Assembly: GCA_963772235.1 (NCBI GenBank)
Contig: CAVYWI010000026.1
Coordinates: forward strand, 65,371 to 129,370
Length of the DNA: 64,000 nucleotides
DNA from: an uncultured Alphaproteobacteria bacterium
Lineage (GTDB): Bacteria > Pseudomonadota > Alphaproteobacteria > Rhizobiales > Xanthobacteraceae
Direction of reading: 5' to 3'
Shown: piece after piece, positions 20,699-28,800 of the stretch
Layout of the letters: each line of letters opens with the position of its first letter
Position numbering within the stretch: the first letter of the stretch is position 1
Translations under genes and position numbers: made by a program
The notes under the pieces: generated by a model
Told to the model about the DNA's origin: nothing
Databases searched by the model: none
The model's input: only the letters and a program-made list of their open reading frames with translations

Positions 20699-21956
20699 GC
20701 TTCTGTCGCGATTGCTTGGCCGATGCGCCGAACAAGTCCCCGAATTTGGCGACGCGCTGTCCGGCCTGCGGGTCGCCGCGGCTTGCGCGCCATGCCGAGC
20801 TCGAACACCTGACCATCGGTCATGTCGACTGCGACGCGTTCTACGCCACGATCGAAAAGCGCGACGATCCCTCGCTCGCCGACAAGCCGGTGATCGTCGG
20901 CGGGGGAAAACGCGGCGTGGTCGCGGCCGCCTGCTACGTCGCGCGCACCTACGGCATCCGTTCGGCCATGCCGATGTTCGAGGCGCTGGCGCCGCTGCCC
21001 CGACGCCGTCGTGATCAAGCCGAACATGTCGAAATACGTCGCAGGCCGGCCGCGCCGTGCGCAAGGCCATGTTCGCGCTGACGCCGCTGGTCGAGCCGCT
21101 GTCGATCGACGAGGCCTTCCTCGATCTCACCGGCACCGAGCGGCTGCACGGCATGAGCGCCGCCAAGGTGCTGGCGCGCTTCGCGCGCGACGTCGAACGC
21201 GACCTCGGCATTACGGTATCGATCGGCCTGTCGGCCAACAAATTCCTCGCCAAGATCGCCTCCGACATGGACAAGCCGCGCGGCTTCGCCGTGCTCGGCC
21301 AGGCGGACGCGGCCGCGTTCCTCGCGGCAAAGCCGGTCGGCTTCATCTACGGCGTCGGCCACGTGAGCGCGGCCAAGCTCGCCGCCGACGGCTATCGCCT
21401 GATCGCCGATCTGCAACGCGCCGACCAGCACGACCTCATGCGCCGCTACGGCGAAGAAGGTTCACGGCTCTGGCATCTGGCGCGCGGGCTCGACACGCGC
21501 AGCGTCGATCCGGAGCGCGAGACCAAGAGCGTTTCGGCGGAGACGACGTTCAATCACGACATCGGCGAATTCCGCCCGCTTGAGCAGACGCTCTGGGAGT
21601 TGACGGAGAAAGTCTCAGGCCGACTGAAAGCGCAGCAGCTCGCCGGCTCGACCGTGACGCTCAAGCTCAAGAGCGCCGACTTCAAGATCCGCACGCGGGC
21701 GCGCTCGCTCGGCGCGGCGACGCAGTTGGCCGCGCGCATCTTTGCCGCTGGGCGCGATTTGCTCGAGAATGAAGTGGGCACGACGCGGTACCGCCTGATC
21801 GGCATCGGCGTCAGTCATCTGCAGGAGGCCGCGGGCGACGATCTCGCCGATCTCCTCGACCGGCGCACGGCCGAGGCCGAGCACGCGGTGGACCGCCTGC
21901 GCGCGAAATTCGGCAAGGACGCGGTGGTGCGTGGTTTAGCGTTGGAGGACGACTAG
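20695..21956 (+). CDS. dinB: DNA polymerase IV (frameshifts near 21000-21050)
   Basis: N-terminal CxxC/Cxx[37 protein letters not shown]. Confidence 0.93.
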
Positions 21957-22828
21957 GACGCGGACTCATATAAGCAGCGAGGTAAATGCCGCCTTGGATA
22001 CGCTTTCCGATGTCTGCTCTTGGGGAAAAGCGGATAAAGGCCGATTTTGGTCTCTGATGGTTCGGTCGCGAATGACCCGGAACGGCCGTTAGGGTCCCGA
22101 GAGTAATACCAATCCATATATGCGCCGTTACCCCGGATCGCGCCACTAGCTGCCTCAACAGCGTCGATGGCGGAGTTGCGACCGTGAAGGCGCACATGAT
22201 CCTCGTAGGCTGCGATTAGTCGTCGGTCCGGCAAACGCGTATTCAAATGAAATAAAAGGACGCGGCCTGTCGGAAGATTTCATTTTCGGCATTCGCACAC
22301 AAGTTCACCGTTTGGCGCATGGATAGCGTGCACGCCAGCCGTCTGCGATTGCAATATCTGCATCCTTGCCGTCCGGGTGTTCCCTCAACCATTTCAGAAT
22401 CGCGGCCCAATTAGCAATAACGGCATTGTTGGAAATCTTGCTGAGATCGGGCGGACAGAAATTCTTATCGTTCCTGACGAATTGCAACACGTCAGAAACG
22501 CCGTCGATGTCTCCCTCGCATATGTCTGTCAGCGTCTTGCAACGTTTAAGAAATTCAGCGACGCTTTCAGCTCTGACTTTCGTTGGCCCCGAAAATACAA
22601 AAACAAATGCGGTCAATACGATCATCACAAACGGAGTCTGACGCACGGGGCCTCCATTAATATTTCCAAATCAATACCGTCGTACTTTGCATTGCCCCGG
22701 CAGGCCGAGCAAGATTGATTTGCGCAGTATGTCCATCTTTTGGCACTTAGCGGACACACCAACCACGCCCGCGGTTGTCTGCTATTGGGCGACAGCGGAC
22801 ATGCGGCCTATTTTATGAGTACACGGCC
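21956..22828. mobile_element. Non-autonomous cargo cassette 1 with imperfect terminal inverted repeats, flanked by TA (CTAG)
   Basis: Left cTA-GGACGCGGACTCATATAA, right TTTTATGAGTACACGGCC-TAg; internal GTCYGCT..AGCGGA hairpins at 22010-22036, 22729-22756 and 22776-22802; lower-GC cargo; no transposase. Confidence 0.7.
22305..22646 (-). CDS. Secreted Rap1a/Tai-like immunity-family protein
   Basis: Signal peptide then C…C-EG-DI-DGV-SD…FCPP…KWLREHP…A…YPC pattern; GGAGG RBS before GTG. Confidence 0.7.
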   Translation of the reverse strand: MRQTPFVMIVLTAFVFVFSGPTKVRAESVAEFLKRCKTLTDICEGDIDGVSDVLQFVRNDKNFCPPDLSKISNNAVIANWAAILKWLREHPDGKDADIAIADGWRARYPCAKR

Positions 22829-22838
22829 TAGAGCGACC

Positions 22839-23715
22839 TTAGGGGCACGGCTTTGGCTTCTTCATCTCCAGCGACGTCATCTCGCCCTTGATGGTGAAAT
22901 CGCTGTAGTCGAGCACCAGCGCGCGCGAGATGCCGTTCTCGTAAAGCTCGAAGGAGATGGCATAGGCCGGCGTCTGCTCGCCGGTTTGCTCGGCGGCGGC
23001 GTCCCGTTGCTCGAAATAGCTGATGGTCACCGGCCAGCGGGTGAGCTTGGCAAGCTCGGGGAATTTCGCCGTCGCATCGTCCGGCGGCTTTGCGCCCGGC
23101 GCGATCGGCTGGCCGATCACGGTGAGCGTGTTGTAGAGCTTCTCGCCGCTTTCCGACCCGTCATAGACCGGGAAATCCAGGATGCTCTTGCCTTCGCGCG
23201 CGGCGGCGATGATGCGCCGCATGTGCTCGGTCGGGAACACCGCGCTCACCGGAGCGGTGAAATTCTTATCCTTTGGCTTGCTCAGATTGATCGCGACCAT
23301 CTTGGCACTGCGTTCGGCATGGCCGTCCACCCTGTCGGTCCGCTTGTCGTCGATCAGGTTTTCCGAGTTGAAGCGGAACGTCTGGGCGTTGCCGGCTTCC
23401 CAGGTGGTGGAGCGCAGATCGCTGAGCGCGGTCTTGCCCTCTCCGGAATCGAGCTCGGACACCTGGCGGAACTGCAGCTGGTAGCCGTCGCAGGCGTTGC
23501 CGGAAAAATCGTACAGGATGCGCCCGCGCACGGCTTCGAGGCCGTGGCTGCCCTTCGACCTCGCCAGCTTGAGGTCGTAGATCGCCCGATGCGGCGCCAG
23601 AAACACCTTGTCGGCGGGCGGCGCGGCCACCGTCGGCCGGGACGCCGCCATGGCGGCGAAGCCGATGGCCAGGACCGTCAAAATCAGCCGTTTGGCGAAC
23701 GTTCAGCGTTTTCAT
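22839..23715 (-). CDS. eipB: Cell envelope integrity protein EipB (DUF1849); possible frameshift in the signal peptide
   Basis: LAPHRAIYDLKL, GRILYDFSGNACDGY, FPTEH, LYENGISRALVLDY; divergent from ridA. Confidence 0.88.
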
Positions 23716-23879
23716 CGATGCGGGCCTTCCGGTGCCGGCGTTGCAGCGGCATCCAGCAATGAATCGAGCAAGATAAGGGCAAGATAGAGGCCGTTACCGC
23801 CGCCGACAACGCCATCATGCGCCGGCTTGCGCCGCCGAGCCCGATCGGCCAAGACAGGGCCACCATCAAGGAGGACGCC

Positions 23880-24353
23880 ATGGCCGGAATGATCGAACAG
23901 AAGCTCGCAAGCCTCGGTATCAGCCTGCCAACTCCGGCCAGTCCGATCGCCAATTACGTGCCGTTCGTGCGCAGCGGCAACATGCTCGTCGTCTCCGGCC
24001 AGCTCTGCTTCGGCACCGACGGCAAGCTCGCCGCCAAGGGCCAGCTCGGCGGCGGCGTGTCGATCGAGGACGGGCAGAAGGCGGCGCGCGCCTGTGCAGT
24101 CAATCTGCTGGCGCAGCTTAAGGTCGCGCTCGGCGACCTCGACAAGGTTGCCCGCGTGGTGCGGCTCGGCGGCTTCATCAATTCGGCGGTCGGCTTCACC
24201 GACGGGCCGAAAGTGATGAACGGCGCATCCGACCTGATGGTCGAGGTGTTCGGCGACAAGGGCCGCCACGCGCGCAGCACCGTCGGCGTCGCCGCGCTGC
24301 CGGCCGACGCTGCGGTCGAAGTCGAAGGCCTGTTCGAAGTGATCAGCGCATGA
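23880..24353 (+). CDS. RidA/YjgF family protein
   Basis: PIANYVP, VSGQL, NGASDL, GRHARSTVGV; AGGAGG RBS. Confidence 0.92.
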   Translation: MAGMIEQKLASLGISLPTPASPIANYVPFVRSGNMLVVSGQLCFGTDGKLAAKGQLGGGVSIEDGQKAARACAVNLLAQLKVALGDLDKVARVVRLGGFINSAVGFTDGPKVMNGASDLMVEVFGDKGRHARSTVGVAALPADAAVEVEGLFEVISA

Positions 24354-24394
24354 TCCCGAAAAGTGGGAACCGGTTTTCGGATAAGATCATGCGC
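24346..24394. repeat. 49-bp palindromic interspersed repeat, copy 1 (supplies the ridA stop codon)
   Basis: GCGCATGATCCCGAAAAGTGGGAACCGGTTTTCGGATAAGATCATGCGC; near-identical inverted copy at 49252. Confidence 0.85.
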
Positions 24395-24411
24395 AAAGCG
24401 AAATAAGCTAA

Positions 24412-25158
24412 ATGCCCAGCCTCGCCTGGCTCACCGCGCGGCCAATCGCCCATCGCGGTCTGCATGACGCCTCAGCCGGCGTGATCGAGAATACGGCGTC
24501 TGCGTTTGCCGCGGCCATCGCCGGCGGCTATGCCATCGAAACCGACCTGCAAATCAGCGCCGACGGCGAGGCTTTCGTGCACCACGACGACGCGCTCGGC
24601 CGCCTGACCGAGGGCAGCGGGCGTCTCGCTGCCATGACCGCTGGCGAGATTGAGGCAGTGCGTTTCAAGGCGACCCGCGACCGCATCATGACGCTCGGCG
24701 ACCTGTGTGATTTCGTGGCCGGGCGCGCCACCTTGGTGATCGAACTCAAGAGCCATTTCGACGGCGACCGGCGGCTGGTCCAGCGCAGCGCCCACGTGCT
24801 GGCGAACTATCGCGGGCCGGTGGCGGTGATGTCGTTCGATCCCGCCATGATCGAAGTCGTGCGCTGGATCGCGCCGCATCTGACACGCGGCATTGTCGCC
24901 GAGCGCCATTACGCGCATCATGAGTGGGATCGCTTCCCGCGCGCGGAAAAGCACAGCATGGCCATGCTCCAGCACGCCGCCCGCAGCCGCCCGCATTTCA
25001 TCGCCTATGGGCTGAAGGACCTGCCGGCCGCGGCGCCGCTGATCGCGCGCATGATCTTCCGTTTGCCGCTGCTGACCTGGACCGTGCGCAGCGACGACGA
25101 CCGCCGCCGCGCGGCGCGCTGGGCCGACCAGATGATATTCGAGGGCATCCGCCCGTGA
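24412..25158 (+). CDS. Glycerophosphodiester phosphodiesterase
   Basis: IAHRGLH, ENT, IETDLQ, HHD, IELKS, LTWTVR. Confidence 0.92.
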   Translation: MPSLAWLTARPIAHRGLHDASAGVIENTASAFAAAIAGGYAIETDLQISADGEAFVHHDDALGRLTEGSGRLAAMTAGEIEAVRFKATRDRIMTLGDLCDFVAGRATLVIELKSHFDGDRRLVQRSAHVLANYRGPVAVMSFDPAMIEVVRWIAPHLTRGIVAERHYAHHEWDRFPRAEKHSMAMLQHAARSRPHFIAYGLKDLPAAAPLIARMIFRLPLLTWTVRSDDDRRRAARWADQMIFEGIRP

Positions 25159-25224
25159 TGGCCGAATGGATGATCAACTTCGAACGATTTCCGGCATAAA
25201 GTCGGGGTAACAGACCTCGACCCG

Positions 25225-26464
25225 ATGACCGACATCGAACTCCGCATCCGCATCGCGCAATCGCTCGCCGAAGTTCCGGCCGCGGCCTGGGACGCCTGCG
25301 CCGGCGGGGCGCTGCGCGTCCACAGTTAAACCAATACATGAGGATAATTTACCCTCGGAGTTATCAACACGAGGACAAGTCGATAACCCATTTATAACTC
25401 ACGATTTCTTGTCATCGCTGGAGGATTCATTTTCGGTCGGCGGCCGGACCGGCTGGCAGCCGCGCCACCTCCTGGCGGAAGGCGCGGATGGCACTCTTCT
25501 GGGCGCGGCGCCCTGCTACGTGAAGAGCCATTCGCGCGGCGAATACGTCTTCGATCAGGGCTGGGCCGAGGCCTTCGAACATGCGGGCGGCGACTATTAC
25601 CCCAAGCTGCAGGTGGCGGTGCCCTTCACCCCGGTGACCGGTCCCCGTCTGCTCGCCCGCCCCGGTCCGCTGGCGCAAGCGGTGCGCGGCGGCCTCGCCG
25701 ATGCCTTGGTCGAGATCACCACGGCGAGCGAGTTGTCGTCGGCCCACGTCACCTTCCTGACCGAGCCGGAATGGCGCGCGCTCGGCGAGCGCGGCTTCCT
25801 GCAGCGCACCGACCAGCAATTCCACTGGGAGAATGCCGGCTACGCCAGCTTCGACGACTTCCTCGGCGCCCTCGCCTCGCGCAAGCGCAAGGCCATCCGC
25901 CGCGAGCGCAAGGAGGCGCTCGAGCCCGGCATCGAGGTGGCATGGCTCACCGGCGCCGATCTCACCGAAACGGTGTGGGACGCCTTTTTCGCCTTCTACA
26001 TGGACACCGGCTCGCGCAAATGGGGCCGGCCTTATCTCACCCGCGAATTCTTCTCCATCGTCGGGGAAAAAATGCGCAACCGCATCCTGCTGGTGATGGC
26101 CAAGCGCGCCGGGCGCTGGATCGGCGGCGCGCTCAATTTCCTAGGCAGCGACACGATCTTCGGCCGCAACTGGGGCGCCATCGAGCACCATCCGTTCCTG
26201 CATTTCGAGCTGTGCTACTATCAGGCCATCGACTACGCCATTCAGAATAAGCTCGGCCGCGTCGAGGCCGGCGCCCAAGGCGAGCACAAGCTGGCGCGCG
26301 GTTATCTGCCGAAGACCACCTATTCCGCCCATTTCATCGCCAATCCAGCGTTGCGGCGGGCCGTGGCCGACTATCTCGCGCGCGAGCGGGCCTATGTGCG
26401 GGCGGCCGGCGAAGAGCTTGCGGCGGCCGCGCCGTTCCGCAAGGATTTGGTGGAGCAGGAGTGA
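25225..26464 (+). CDS. GNAT/FemAB-like protein (DUF482), one frameshift near 25320
   Basis: AAWDACA…NPFITHDFLSSLE, KSHSRGEYVFD, LHFELCYYQAID, EAGAQGEHKLARGY. Confidence 0.9.
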
Positions 26465-26479
26465 GTTCTGGGGGACCCA

Positions 26480-26908
26480 ATGCCGAGCTACGATCCGAAC
26501 AACATCTTCGCCAAGATCCTGCGCGGCGAGTTGCCCTGCTACAAGGTCTACGAAGACGACAAGGCCTTCGCCTTCCTCGACATCATGCCGCGCGCGCCCG
26601 GGCACACGCTGGTGCTGCCGAAGGCGCCGGCGCGCAACATTCTCGACATCGGCGCCGACGATCTGGCGCATGTCATGAAGGTGGCCCAAAAGGTCGCCAA
26701 AGCCGCCATGACGGCGTTCGGGGCCGACGGCATCACCATGCAGCAGTTCAACGAGGGCGCCGGCGGACAGGTGGTGTTCCACCTGCATGTTCATATCATC
26801 CCGCGCAAAAGCGGCGTGCCCATGAAGCCGCCGGCAGCCGAAAAGGAAAAGCCGGACGCGCTGGCCGAGAACGCCAAGAAGCTCGCCGCCGCCATCGCCG
26901 CCGGATGA
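26480..26908 (+). CDS. HIT family protein
   Basis: NNIFAKILRGE, GQVVFHLHVHIIPR. Confidence 0.95.
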   Translation: MPSYDPNNIFAKILRGELPCYKVYEDDKAFAFLDIMPRAPGHTLVLPKAPARNILDIGADDLAHVMKVAQKVAKAAMTAFGADGITMQQFNEGAGGQVVFHLHVHIIPRKSGVPMKPPAAEKEKPDALAENAKKLAAAIAAG

Positions 26909-27045
26909 CGAAGACAAGGCCGTGTAACTCATAAAATACGCTATGCGCTACGTCCGCTTTTCCTCTCAAAGCAGACATTCGCCAATGCGTTTGCCATGTC
27001 CGTTAAGTGCCAATCGCGACCAAACGCACTGCGACATGATCGGCA

Positions 27046-27076
27046 CAAAAAGAAAGACCGCCAACGCGGCGGTCTC
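27046..27076 (-). terminator. Intrinsic terminator of the PEP-CTERM-like gene
   Basis: AGACCGCC-aacgc-GGCGGTCT hairpin with a T-tract on the minus strand. Confidence 0.65.
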
Positions 27077-27101
27077 TCCAAATTTCAGTTAGGTGGTTTG
27101 A

Positions 27102-27617
27102 TTAGGCGGCTACGAGTGCGGCAGCTTTCTTTTTCCTGCGCCAGCCGAGCAGACCCAACGCGCCGATGCCAGTGGCGAAGAGTGGGAGTGTGGCTGGGAG
27201 CGGTGTCGCGCTCGCGGTGTCGATGGTCAGCGAATTCACCGTGAGCGAATCCGCGCCGGTGTTACCCCCCGTCAAACCTTCGCCAATCCAAATCCCTTGC
27301 AGTTGGTCGAGCACTCAGTACGGCAAATGCGCTCAGCCACCCGATCCAAAGTCTTCGTGTTATGTTCGCGCCGTCGGGGCCCTGCAGGTACGTGCCGGTT
27401 ATACTGTCATACAGATTGAACAGCGTTGCGCTCGGATCGAGGCCCAAAGTGTTGCCGGAAAGAGCGTTGGTCTGGAACTCGATCAGCAGAATCTGGTCTG
27501 TAGCCGGCACCTTGGCCCAAGCTGTTGCTGCTGTCGACAAACGGCAGCAGGAAAAACGGCTGATCGGTGCCCTGGCTCGTGAACACGACATTTGCCGATG
27601 CCGATCCGCGTTTTATC
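27102..27617 (-). pseudogene. PEP-CTERM/VPLPA-CTERM-like exosortase-target protein, 5'-truncated and frameshifted
   Basis: C-terminus TPLPATLPLFATGIGALGLLGWRRKKK; upstream coding pieces in other frames stop at a palindromic repeat. Confidence 0.7.
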
Positions 27618-27646
27618 GCGCATGATCTTATCCGAAATCCGGTTCC
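27618..27646. repeat. Partial copy of the 49-bp palindromic repeat
   Basis: GCGCATGATCTTATCCGAAATCCGGTTCC matches 49252-49280 with one mismatch. Confidence 0.75.
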
Positions 27647-27838
27647 GCGACTCGGATAAGTGCCAATAGGCGACATCGCTGGAGCCAAAGTCCTTGACGA
27701 ATAACAAACTGCGTAAGGAGGGCGATGCCCAAGTTTGGAGTGTCAAAATGCCACTTTCGTTTCAAATCTTGGCCAAGTGCGTGCACACCGTCCAACAACT
27801 ACGACGACTCGAACTCATGAACTGCTTGCTTCGCGATT

Positions 27839-28228
27839 TTAACATCCTTTGGGGCAGACGCGCTGCAAGCGGTCTCGCTCCGTGGCGTCTTTCTTGGCTA
27901 AGTCGGCTTTGCCGAGTTTTTCATAGATCTTACTTCGTATATGGAAGGCGAATTGAAATGTTGGCCACACACGAATGGCCATATTCGCATCCTCCAATGC
28001 CTTTCGATAGTCGTCCATCTTCGCGTAGGTTATTGCACGATTGGCATAGGATAGGGCTGTGTCGTGCTGGCTTCGGCTGTGATCCGCAATCTGGCGACTG
28101 CAATCATTGAGGGATTCTTGGCCCTTGGTGTCGTAACAGTGCATTTGAGCCGATGCCGGTATTGGCGAGACAACGATCGCGATGATCGCTGAAAGCGCCG
28201 CCAATCCGCCAACTTTGATTAATGTCAT
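27839..28228 (-). CDS. Secreted TPR-repeat protein
   Basis: Signal peptide MTLIKVGG…PASA; TPR pattern SYANRAITYAKMDDYRKALEDANMAI…AFHIRSKIYEKLGKADLAKKD. Confidence 0.75.
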   Translation of the reverse strand: MTLIKVGGLAALSAIIAIVVSPIPASAQMHCYDTKGQESLNDCSRQIADHSRSQHDTALSYANRAITYAKMDDYRKALEDANMAIRVWPTFQFAFHIRSKIYEKLGKADLAKKDATERDRLQRVCPKGC

Positions 28229-28452
28229 TGGTCTTTTCCTGTTTGGTTGGCTTAACTTAGCGAGCTTAGCTGATATTACCCCTTTCATGCCATCGCCAGA
28301 ACGACCGCTCGCCCTAATGGAGGTCGCGCGCTTAACCAAAGCGTCATCGCGGCAGAAGGTCCACACCTTTGTTCGCGTGATTTCCTGAGATGTCCGCTAT
28401 GGGGACGACGCATCCACTTTGTCATTTAGCTGGCCGTTTACGCGTCCACGCC

Positions 28453-28800
28453 CTACTGCGCGAATAAAAATCCGCCCAACAACAGCGCCGCCTCGCCGGC
28501 CAGCACCCCGGCGAATACCGAGCGCTTCACCGCCAGGAAAGCGAGAAATCCGCAGACCGCGGCGCCGACGCGCACGGTGAGCGGAATGCCGGCGAGCGCG
28601 CCGGCGGAAAACAGGATCAGCTTGGCGATGACGCCGGCGAGGATCGCGGTCGCCACCCCGCGCGACCACACCACGATCTCGGAATCCTCGTTGAGCCCGC
28701 GCGCCAGCATCAGGCCGAGCACGCGCCATATCTCGTTCGGCAAATAGCCGACCAGGATCAGCAGCAGATAGGGCCACAGTTCGGTCAAAGCGGTGTTCAT
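28453..28800 (-). CDS. azlD: AzlD-domain membrane protein
   Basis: Hydrophobic; PNEIWRVLG, VATAILAGVIAKL; coupled to azlC. Confidence 0.8.
   Translation of the reverse strand: MNTALTELWPYLLLILVGYLPNEIWRVLGLMLARGLNEDSEIVVWSRGVATAILAGVIAKLILFSAGALAGIPLTVRVGAAVCGFLAFLAVKRSVFAGVLAGEAALLLGGFLFAQ

Follow-up and report, generated by a model that had tools for sequence, protein, structure and literature searches.

Two low-GC inserts occupy spacers between core genes in a stretch of 64,000 nucleotides (nt; hereafter the window) of contig CAVYWI010000026.1 (positions 65,371 to 129,370 of the forward strand), from an uncultured alphaproteobacterium of the Xanthobacteraceae (assembly GCA_963772235.1, here G000). 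Both inserts, referred to as cassettes 1 and 2, are with high confidence non-autonomous derivatives of the insertion sequence (IS) IS427, of the IS5 family and IS427 group, and belong to the mobile insertion cassette (MIC) type. MICs are passenger genes lying between IS repeats without a transposase gene and presumed to be moved in trans, whereas transporter ISs (tISs) show the same layout with the transposase present (PMC3281130, PMC9330008). The cassettes are thus a known kind of element, a MIC/tIS of the IS427 group, and are not integron-like. An earlier note on this DNA had recognized a family of non-autonomous elements, a description that stands, as the ends are of the IS5 family, no transposase is enclosed and relatives lack the inserts at the same sites.

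The terminal repeats carry most of this assignment. In the studied genome, every well-defined pair of ends combines one GTAC-type end, named after positions 7-10 of the repeat and followed by two palindromes, with one GGAC-type end. The consensus repeat GGGCGYGKACTCATAAA, derived from 22 ends, matches the ends of the IS427 annotated in Agrobacterium pAtCFBP5877b, a TA-flanked element of 1272 bp ending in GGCCGTGAACCCATAAAC and GGCCGTAGACTCATAAGC. The earlier assignment of the ends to the IS5 family is thereby made more precise. The cognate transposase exists elsewhere. Intact genes for a transposase of 264 amino acids (aa) are found in congeners G016 and G058, and a frameshifted copy in G052. 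These transposases belong to NCBIfam family NF033580 (transpos_IS5_3, E 1e-90) and contain the Pfam domains DUF4096 and DDE_Tnp_1. Their identity is 85% with a plasmid-borne copy from Ensifer adhaerens and 62% with the protein annotated on Agrobacterium plasmids as "IS5-like element IS427 family transposase". The cognate transposase is also found on plasmids of Ensifer, Bosea and Bradyrhizobium.

Intact transposases end in ...WLRxYESAP, the YESAP codons lying inside the repeat and the stop codon being formed by the flanking TA plus G. An open reading frame (ORF) entering a GGAC end in congener G002 finishes with ...NLVERFYNKIKQCRRVATRYDKLA, which is the motif found at the C-terminus of IS5-family transposases. 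In cassettes 1 and 2, in a third cassette elsewhere in the assembly and in five other elements without transposase (from G000, G002 and G005), the GGAC end retains the repeat plus about 43 nt from the 3' end of the transposase gene, and a palindrome follows. What had been described as a separate layout of one end is, by alignment, the 3' end of a lost transposase gene. This end combines the right repeat with a transposase remnant, which is why the spurious ORF called at 21953-22246 ends in ...LYESAS. Between the repeats of cassettes 1 and 2, listed ORFs and Pfam searches give passenger genes and no transposase gene apart from this remnant.

Both low-GC inserts are true insertions of mobile DNA (Table 1). 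Their GC content is 0.48-0.56 against about 0.65-0.70 in the surroundings, and their edges coincide with the repeats to the base. TA lies on both sides of cassette 1 and on one side of cassette 2, whose other flank is AA, so that three of the four ends adjoin TA. The first G of the repeat is the last base of the TAG stop codons of dinB (21954-21956) and azlD (28453-28455, minus strand), and neither gene is broken. The positions of the four ends, their flanks, the drop in GC and the insertion at stop codons had all been read correctly from the sequence.

The sites without inserts are found in relatives, where such a comparison had been proposed. The stop codons of dinB and eipB are about 7-10 nt apart in nine congeners, and removal of 21956-22828 together with one TA from the studied genome gives GACGAC-TAG-AGCGACC-TTA, which regains the congener geometry. 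The deduced empty site, GACGAC-TA-GAGCGACC, contains CTAG. In G002, the same spacer is occupied by a different family member of 4.3 kb in the opposite orientation. At the second junction, 11 congeners have 0-12 nt between the HIT gene and azlD, and the closest relative, G013, has a CTAG at the azlD stop.

The family extends well beyond the window. The assembly of the studied genome comprises 4.12 Mb in 31 contigs and is 77.6% complete. The window alone holds three motif matches against 1.08 expected, a number reached in 6 of 100 shuffles and thus weakly above chance. Across the genome, a weight matrix of the first 18 nt of the ends finds 22 sites at a score of at least 18 (2 in the reversed genome) and 17 at a score of at least 20 (none in the reversed genome), so that the genome-wide search for the motif, suggested beforehand, returns a clear signal. 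The total is about 22 ends at about 16 sites, with varied cargo. (C/T)TA precedes nearly all of them, a TA flank being present at 20 of 26 candidate ends, mostly with C before it, and every end borders a low-GC stretch of 0.4-5 kb. The third cassette (C24:375791-377598) shares its two kinds of end with cassette 1 and bears a gene for a Kir-type channel. Two contigs stop within family elements, in each case about 1.3 kb in from a left-end-type repeat (C3:220953-222319 and C26:1-1310). Breaks of the assembly in or near family elements are thus possible, which makes the census of pairs a lower bound.

The same repeats could be thought of as ordinary intergenic repeats, of the repetitive extragenic palindromic (REP) type or resembling MITEs (miniature transposable elements with inverted repeats), situated at the edges of horizontally acquired islands whose low-GC DNA arrived by another route. 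Many ends indeed stand without a partner, and relatives carry other small palindromic repeats in the same spacers. This explanation is nonetheless highly improbable, given that the insert edges match the repeats to the base with TA on each side, that removal of the insert restores the spacer of about 7 nt seen in relatives, that a remnant of a transposase gene is present at one end, and that paired ends are always inverted around low-GC DNA. Two more specific sources were rejected. A RAYT/REPIN system is not supported, as no match to the RAYT Y1 transposase (PF01797) was found in the incomplete assembly, and a MITE derived from IS630/Tc1-mariner elements, which would duplicate TA within CTAG, does not agree with the unrelated ends of the resident IS630 (DDE_3) copies on C23 and C11.

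Several points weigh against the assignment to IS427-type cassettes moved by a transposase. The weight matrix was built from the same ends that were then counted, and a recognizable partner is absent for many genome ends. One repeat of cassette 2 has a 1-nt insertion and one of its flanks is AA. The ends have diverged, with 12-13 of 18 positions matching between the two ends of one cassette and 89% identity over 64 nt between cassette 1 and E3 ends, so the copies are old. Transposition itself is predicted from sequence rather than observed, and the junction at about 43 nt could in principle result from recurrent deletion at hairpins rather than from the spread of one backbone. Finally, a tblastn search of the studied assembly, at its 77.6% completeness, did not find the cognate transposase. 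A copy enclosing the transposase, whose existence the earlier note had proposed to check, is found in congeners and on plasmids, but not in the studied assembly.

The IS5-family genes that do reside in this assembly are of other kinds. The sole IS427-group gene, on C25, is 25% identical to the cognate transposase and has unrelated ends (GAGGCTGACCCGAAA). Two IS5-family copies of 1.5 kb, 95.7% identical to each other (C20:38690-40215 and C24:46322-47848), end in GAGTCGTCCGTTAAG, unrelated to the cassettes. Because the ends differ, the resident copies on C20, C24 and C25 are ruled out as a source. A search of the genome for DDE_Tnp_4 gave no match. The cassettes of the studied genome are probably immobile at present.

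Comparison of transposase-bearing copies reveals where the cargo resides. In every copy with a transposase, the passenger DNA occupies the interval from the left repeat to the transposase leader. Homology between elements begins 35 nt before the start codon, at GTGATTCAAGCTCC, and the left repeat is found 0.07 to 3.3 kb upstream of the leader with unrelated genes in between. The order left repeat, passenger, leader, transposase and right repeat is found in Ensifer, Bosea, Bradyrhizobium, Mesorhizobium, Sinorhizobium, Sphingobium and Novosphingobium, with a compact form in Martelella. The resulting size series runs from Martelella (~850 bp, no passenger) through Novosphingobium (1106 bp, passenger not annotated), Sphingobium (1111 bp) and Mesorhizobium (1188 bp), both with a small ORF, Agrobacterium IS427 (1272 bp, SMI1/KNR4), Sinorhizobium (~1390 bp, hypothetical protein), Bosea (1834 bp, VOC protein), G052 (2084 bp, small membrane and dodecin-like proteins, read by eye), Ensifer (2150 bp, DUF1254) and Bradyrhizobium japonicum (3654 bp, Crp/Fnr and others) to G058 (4072 bp, bacterioferritin and iron-permease-like genes, read by eye). 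Public alphaproteobacterial genomes contain at least 119 stretches bearing the TA-flanked repeat. In 80 of them, 21 repeat pairs spanning 155 bp to 5.6 kb enclose a full transposase in 3 cases, a partial one in 3 and none in 15. A limited literature search found no description of IS427-derived cassettes or of this passenger slot.

Autonomous relatives encode a 264-aa DDE transposase whose reading frame enters the right repeat and is closed by the target TAG. The cassettes have lost this gene save for its last ~43 nt while keeping both repeats and the modules of about 100 nt, and in the proposed mechanism they would have been moved by a transposase supplied in trans.

A different history leads to the same structures if autonomous cargo-carrying IS427-type elements arrived and later lost their transposase in place, the transposase-less form having never moved. 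Congeners do contain transposase-bearing elements with cargo, and partly deleted copies exist: locus L037 of G002 retains a 103-aa C-terminal remnant of the transposase, whereas the intermediate at L036 of G013 has the 35-nt leader fused to the last 58 nt of the gene. The hairpins, moreover, look like deletion hot spots. Such deletion in place is judged unlikely as the general explanation. Indeed, the right repeat, the remnant of ~43 nt and the junction with hairpin 1 are common to eight transposase-less elements at different loci in four species, for which the spread of one deleted backbone is simpler. The 15 public pairs of 21 without transposase also speak against it, as do several pairs having left-end-type repeats at both ends, which do not arise from a simple internal deletion. 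Cassettes mobilized in trans remain the preferred reading.

Table 1. Features of cassettes 1 and 2 and their flanks (positions in the window; IRR, right inverted repeat; IRL, left inverted repeat).
Feature	Position	Strand	Basis or remark
Cassette 1, transposase-less IS427-type element, 873 bp, about 52% GC, between dinB and eipB	21956-22828		Terminal repeats, GC drop, empty sites
Left copy of the putatively duplicated TA target; with G21956, dinB TAG stop	21954-21955		Sequence
Right-end-type repeat (IRR type, GGAC variant), left boundary of cassette 1, GGACGCGGACTCATATAA	21956-21973	+	Aligns with IRR of transposase-bearing copies and IS427
3' remnant of the lost transposase; with the repeat reads ...LYESAS then TAG stop	21974-22009	-	Alignment with intact genes ending ...WLRxYESAP
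Subterminal hairpin 1, IRR-side module, cassette 1	22010-22035		Palindrome statistics
Hairpin 2, IRR-side module, cut in loop; homology to other members stops here	22060-22085		Comparison of ends
Cargo: 113-aa Rap1a-like protein with signal peptide	22305-22646	-	Pfam PF18602, E 2.6e-5, 25.1 bits, below the 27.7-bit cut-off
IRL-side module, cassette 1: hairpin 2 half (22740-22757), hairpin 1 (22775-22802)	22740-22802	-	
Left-end-type repeat (IRL type, GTAC variant), right boundary of cassette 1, GGCCGTGTACTCATAAAA	22811-22828	-	Repeat comparison
Right copy of the putatively duplicated TA, cassette 1	22829-22830		Sequence, empty-site comparison
Cassette 2, 1536 bp, about 55% GC, between HIT gene and azlD	26918-28453		Congener junctions
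IRL-type repeat with 1-nt insertion (extra A) and AA flank, left boundary of cassette 2, GGCCGTGTAACTCATAAAA	26918-26936	+	Sequence
IRL-side module, cassette 2: hairpin 1 (26950-26978), hairpin 2 half (26996-27013)	26950-27013	+	
Cargo: frameshifted pseudogene of a PEP-CTERM protein	27102-27591	-	Pfam PF07589 on 27102-27314; two overlapping frames
Internal junction: fragment of the palindromic repeat of 24336-24400 joined to a remnant resembling hairpin 2	27618-27676		97% complementary to 24366-24394
Cargo: 130-aa TPR protein with N-terminal hydrophobic leader	27839-28231	-	Pfam TPR_1, E 1.6e-7
IRR-side remnant: hairpin-1 loop and 3' arm plus degenerate transposase 3' remnant	28390-28435	-	IRR-type end alignment
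IRR-type repeat, right boundary of cassette 2, GGGCGTGGACGCGTAAAC; first base completes azlD TAG stop	28436-28453	-	Sequence, weight matrix
TA target copy, cassette 2	28454-28455		Sequence

The insertion into stop codons can be accounted for by the target. CTAG is among the rarest tetranucleotides of the studied genome, with 2139 copies or 0.154 of expectation. At 14 of 16 occupied sites, the TA+G stop closes a frame open for at least 88 codons, compared with 41% of all CTAG sites, a rough measure because long open frames are common in high-GC DNA. Autonomous relatives would insert at the TA of (C/T)TA(G/A) and duplicate this TA, in keeping with the TA/CTAG target named in the earlier note. 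The element's initial G restores a host TAG stop at the target, so that the host gene is spared. A rare target often located within TAG stops, a stop-rebuilding G and selection against intragenic insertion are together enough for the stop-codon pattern; the excess would result from the rarity of CTAG and from the loss of insertions inside genes.

The duplication itself is probably TA. TA and CTAG duplications are indistinguishable at symmetric sites. A 4-bp duplication would fit the pair at L039 of G005, with TTAG on both sides, whereas the ends at C23:395411 and 400123, with CTAG and TTAG, are at odds with 4 bp. Duplications of 2 bp are the rule in the IS427 group (PMC3281130). For IS870, the CTAG target makes the transposase stop codon, as far as it is related in PMC13630536, which cites Fournier 1993 for it.

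Cargo genes are diverse. Those of the window all encode exported proteins where recognizable, as had been noticed, which does not extend to the elements elsewhere and in relatives, where apparent TetR and ArsR regulators and enzymes are also found. Other cargo of the studied genome includes a cytochrome c, an acyltransferase and a TPR protein and, read by eye, several small proteins with signal-peptide-like N-termini and a look-alike of TetR-type regulators. In relatives, N-terminal sequences read by eye point to regulator-like, enzyme-like and signalling proteins. The bias towards exported proteins in the studied genome is thus an impression and not a rule. Together with the sequence downstream of it, the 3' portion of the PEP-CTERM pseudogene (window 27040-27210) is found in many copies across the genus at 72-88% identity, which points to a large family of PEP-CTERM genes with conserved 3' ends.

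The site of the third cassette illustrates the turnover of cargo. G000, G046 and G031 share the junctions, orientation and ends at this site, and their interiors are unrelated: 1808 bp with the Kir-type channel gene in G000, 1961 bp encoding other exported proteins in G046, and 434 bp in G031. The element is absent from this site in G013, G005 and G002. These observations are consistent with a single old insertion that later had its interior exchanged or lost at the hairpins; separate insertions into the same hot spot are also possible. In G000, the interior opens, right after a broken hairpin, with a sequence of ~95-108 nt (L001:846-952, that is C24:375845-375951) that is multi-copy in relatives, with at least 10 copies in G046 and others in G002, G005 and G031. 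At L039 and L010, the 5' arm of the hairpin is succeeded by a related junction, CTCAACCGGTCGACGC.ACAC.

The hairpins themselves are organized in modules of two palindromes over about 100 nt, located inside both ends in inverted orientation. The layout common to the right end of cassette 1 (minus strand) and the left end of cassette 2, already pointed out in the earlier note, is real, and in transposase-bearing copies the hairpins lie just upstream of the leader. Strict regular expressions find few copies because the modules have diverged. The half-site ATGTCCGCT, with at most one mismatch, is only mildly enriched across the genome (878 against 627 for the reversed word). In the arms (e.g., 22010-22035, 22775-22802 and 26950-26978), the perfect palindrome is most often broken by the changes GTCCGCT to GTCTGCT and AGCGGAC to AGCAGAC. 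Each is a transition at one and the same CpG, read from one strand or the other, which is the pattern that deamination of a methylated cytosine should leave. No Rfam family matches the hairpins.

Hairpins coincide with breakpoints, and they are clearly either fragile or targeted. In G000, the loop of hairpin 1 of an IS427-type subterminal module is occupied by an IS110-family element whose DEDD transposase is frameshifted (L012:1210-2692, that is C19:115209-116691), with the 5' arm ATGTCCGCT on one side and AGCAGAC on the other. Its right junction, ...GATTACCCCATC followed by TTTCGGGG, recurs in G031 (L216:777-1101). Hairpin loops seem to be a specific target of this IS110-family element, and REP sequences are likewise targets of IS621.

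A separate palindromic repeat of ~65 nt, ATGATCCCGAAAAGTGGGAACCGGTTTTCGGATAAGATCAT..., is found at 24336-24400 of the window, and a partial copy lies inside cassette 2 (27618-27646). Two of the spacers, dinB-eipB of G013 and HIT-azlD of G002, are filled by this same repeat. Its only Rfam matches are weak, sub-threshold ones to the Brucella small RNA models CI27 and CI408.

The hairpins had led to the suggestion of an integron-like system, in which they would be attC-like sites where a site-specific recombinase captures single genes, while the terminal repeats only move the array. Hairpin modules in inverted orientation on both sides of the cargo would suit such a system, as would homology between family members that breaks inside hairpin loops at the four junctions examined, and the three species with the same ends at one orthologous site and three unrelated interiors. 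Its probability is nevertheless very low. Hairpin 1 is a conserved palindrome, with 79% of positions pairing against 27-44% with slid partners, but its covariation is 0.114 against 0.112 in shuffles, so the proposed covariance check returns changes that are not compensatory. The hairpins lie within about 125 nt of the ends and not between all cargo genes: in a 4.7-kb element with five to six genes, good hairpins are present at the two ends only. What was taken for hairpins at cargo boundaries corresponds to subterminal modules or their remnants, which do not mark each boundary. None of the seven tyrosine recombinase genes (PF00589) of the genome adjoins an element or lies in the window, there is no RAYT gene in the assembly, and the IS110-family element in the loop accounts for two of the hairpin breakpoints. 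In the IS427-derived cassettes, the best guess is that the hairpins are a subterminal transposase-binding or regulatory sequence inherited with the backbone.

A more tentative proposal keeps an exchange of cargo without gene capture. The IS427 clade may possess a dedicated slot between inverted two-hairpin modules, in which cargo is swapped at the hairpins while the element stays put, an idea that is doubtful at this stage. In that case, the hairpins would be hot spots of recombination, possibly by way of IS110-family elements targeting their loops.

Among known systems, IS427 of Agrobacterium tumefaciens is the closest, with near-identical 18-bp terminal repeats and TA flanks, a transposase of the same NCBIfam family as that of the congeners, and a passenger ORF (SMI1/KNR4) between the left repeat and the transposase gene. 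The window cassettes differ in having no transposase and other cargo, and in their two-hairpin modules of about 100 nt, which IS427 does not have. IS870 of Agrobacterium vitis, to the extent described in PMC13630536, shares the CTAG target and the stop codon derived from the target TAG, as intact relatives here end in ...YESAP plus the target TAG. MIC231 of Bacillus cereus, derived from IS231, likewise has passenger genes between IS repeats without transposase, which is what defines a MIC. Unlike MIC231, the cassettes come from IS5/IS427 and not IS4/IS231, belong to a clade with a fixed passenger slot by the left repeat, and insert at stop codons.

Mosaic non-autonomous transposons built by Tn3-derived TIMEs (miniature elements with inverted repeats; PMC4133298) resemble the family in that DNA between two inverted short non-autonomous ends becomes mobilizable, which recalls the public IS427-type pairs with left-end-type repeats at both ends; the TIMEs depend on a different transposase superfamily. 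Integron attC sites and REP/REPIN-RAYT systems also place palindromes beside variable genes, whereas the cassettes have no linked IntI or RAYT and no covariation, and their hairpins are fixed near transposon ends.

IS427 and its relatives are thus not plain insertion sequences, but form a size series of about 850 bp to over 4 kb built on one passenger slot, and in the alphaproteobacterial sample transposase-less copies outnumber autonomous ones. In the studied genome, the family accounts for the small low-GC islets at about 16 sites, where small genes of foreign composition, for exported, membrane and regulatory proteins, are placed exactly at core-gene stop codons without harm to the core genes. 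Such islets can be recognized during annotation by a simple marker, the repeat consensus and its TA flank, and spurious ORFs over the ends, such as 21953-22246, can be dismissed. Of broader interest is the question whether cargo is really exchanged in the hairpin-bounded slot. If it is, hairpin exchange would provide a dispersed platform on which accessory genes are swapped at core-gene stop codons.

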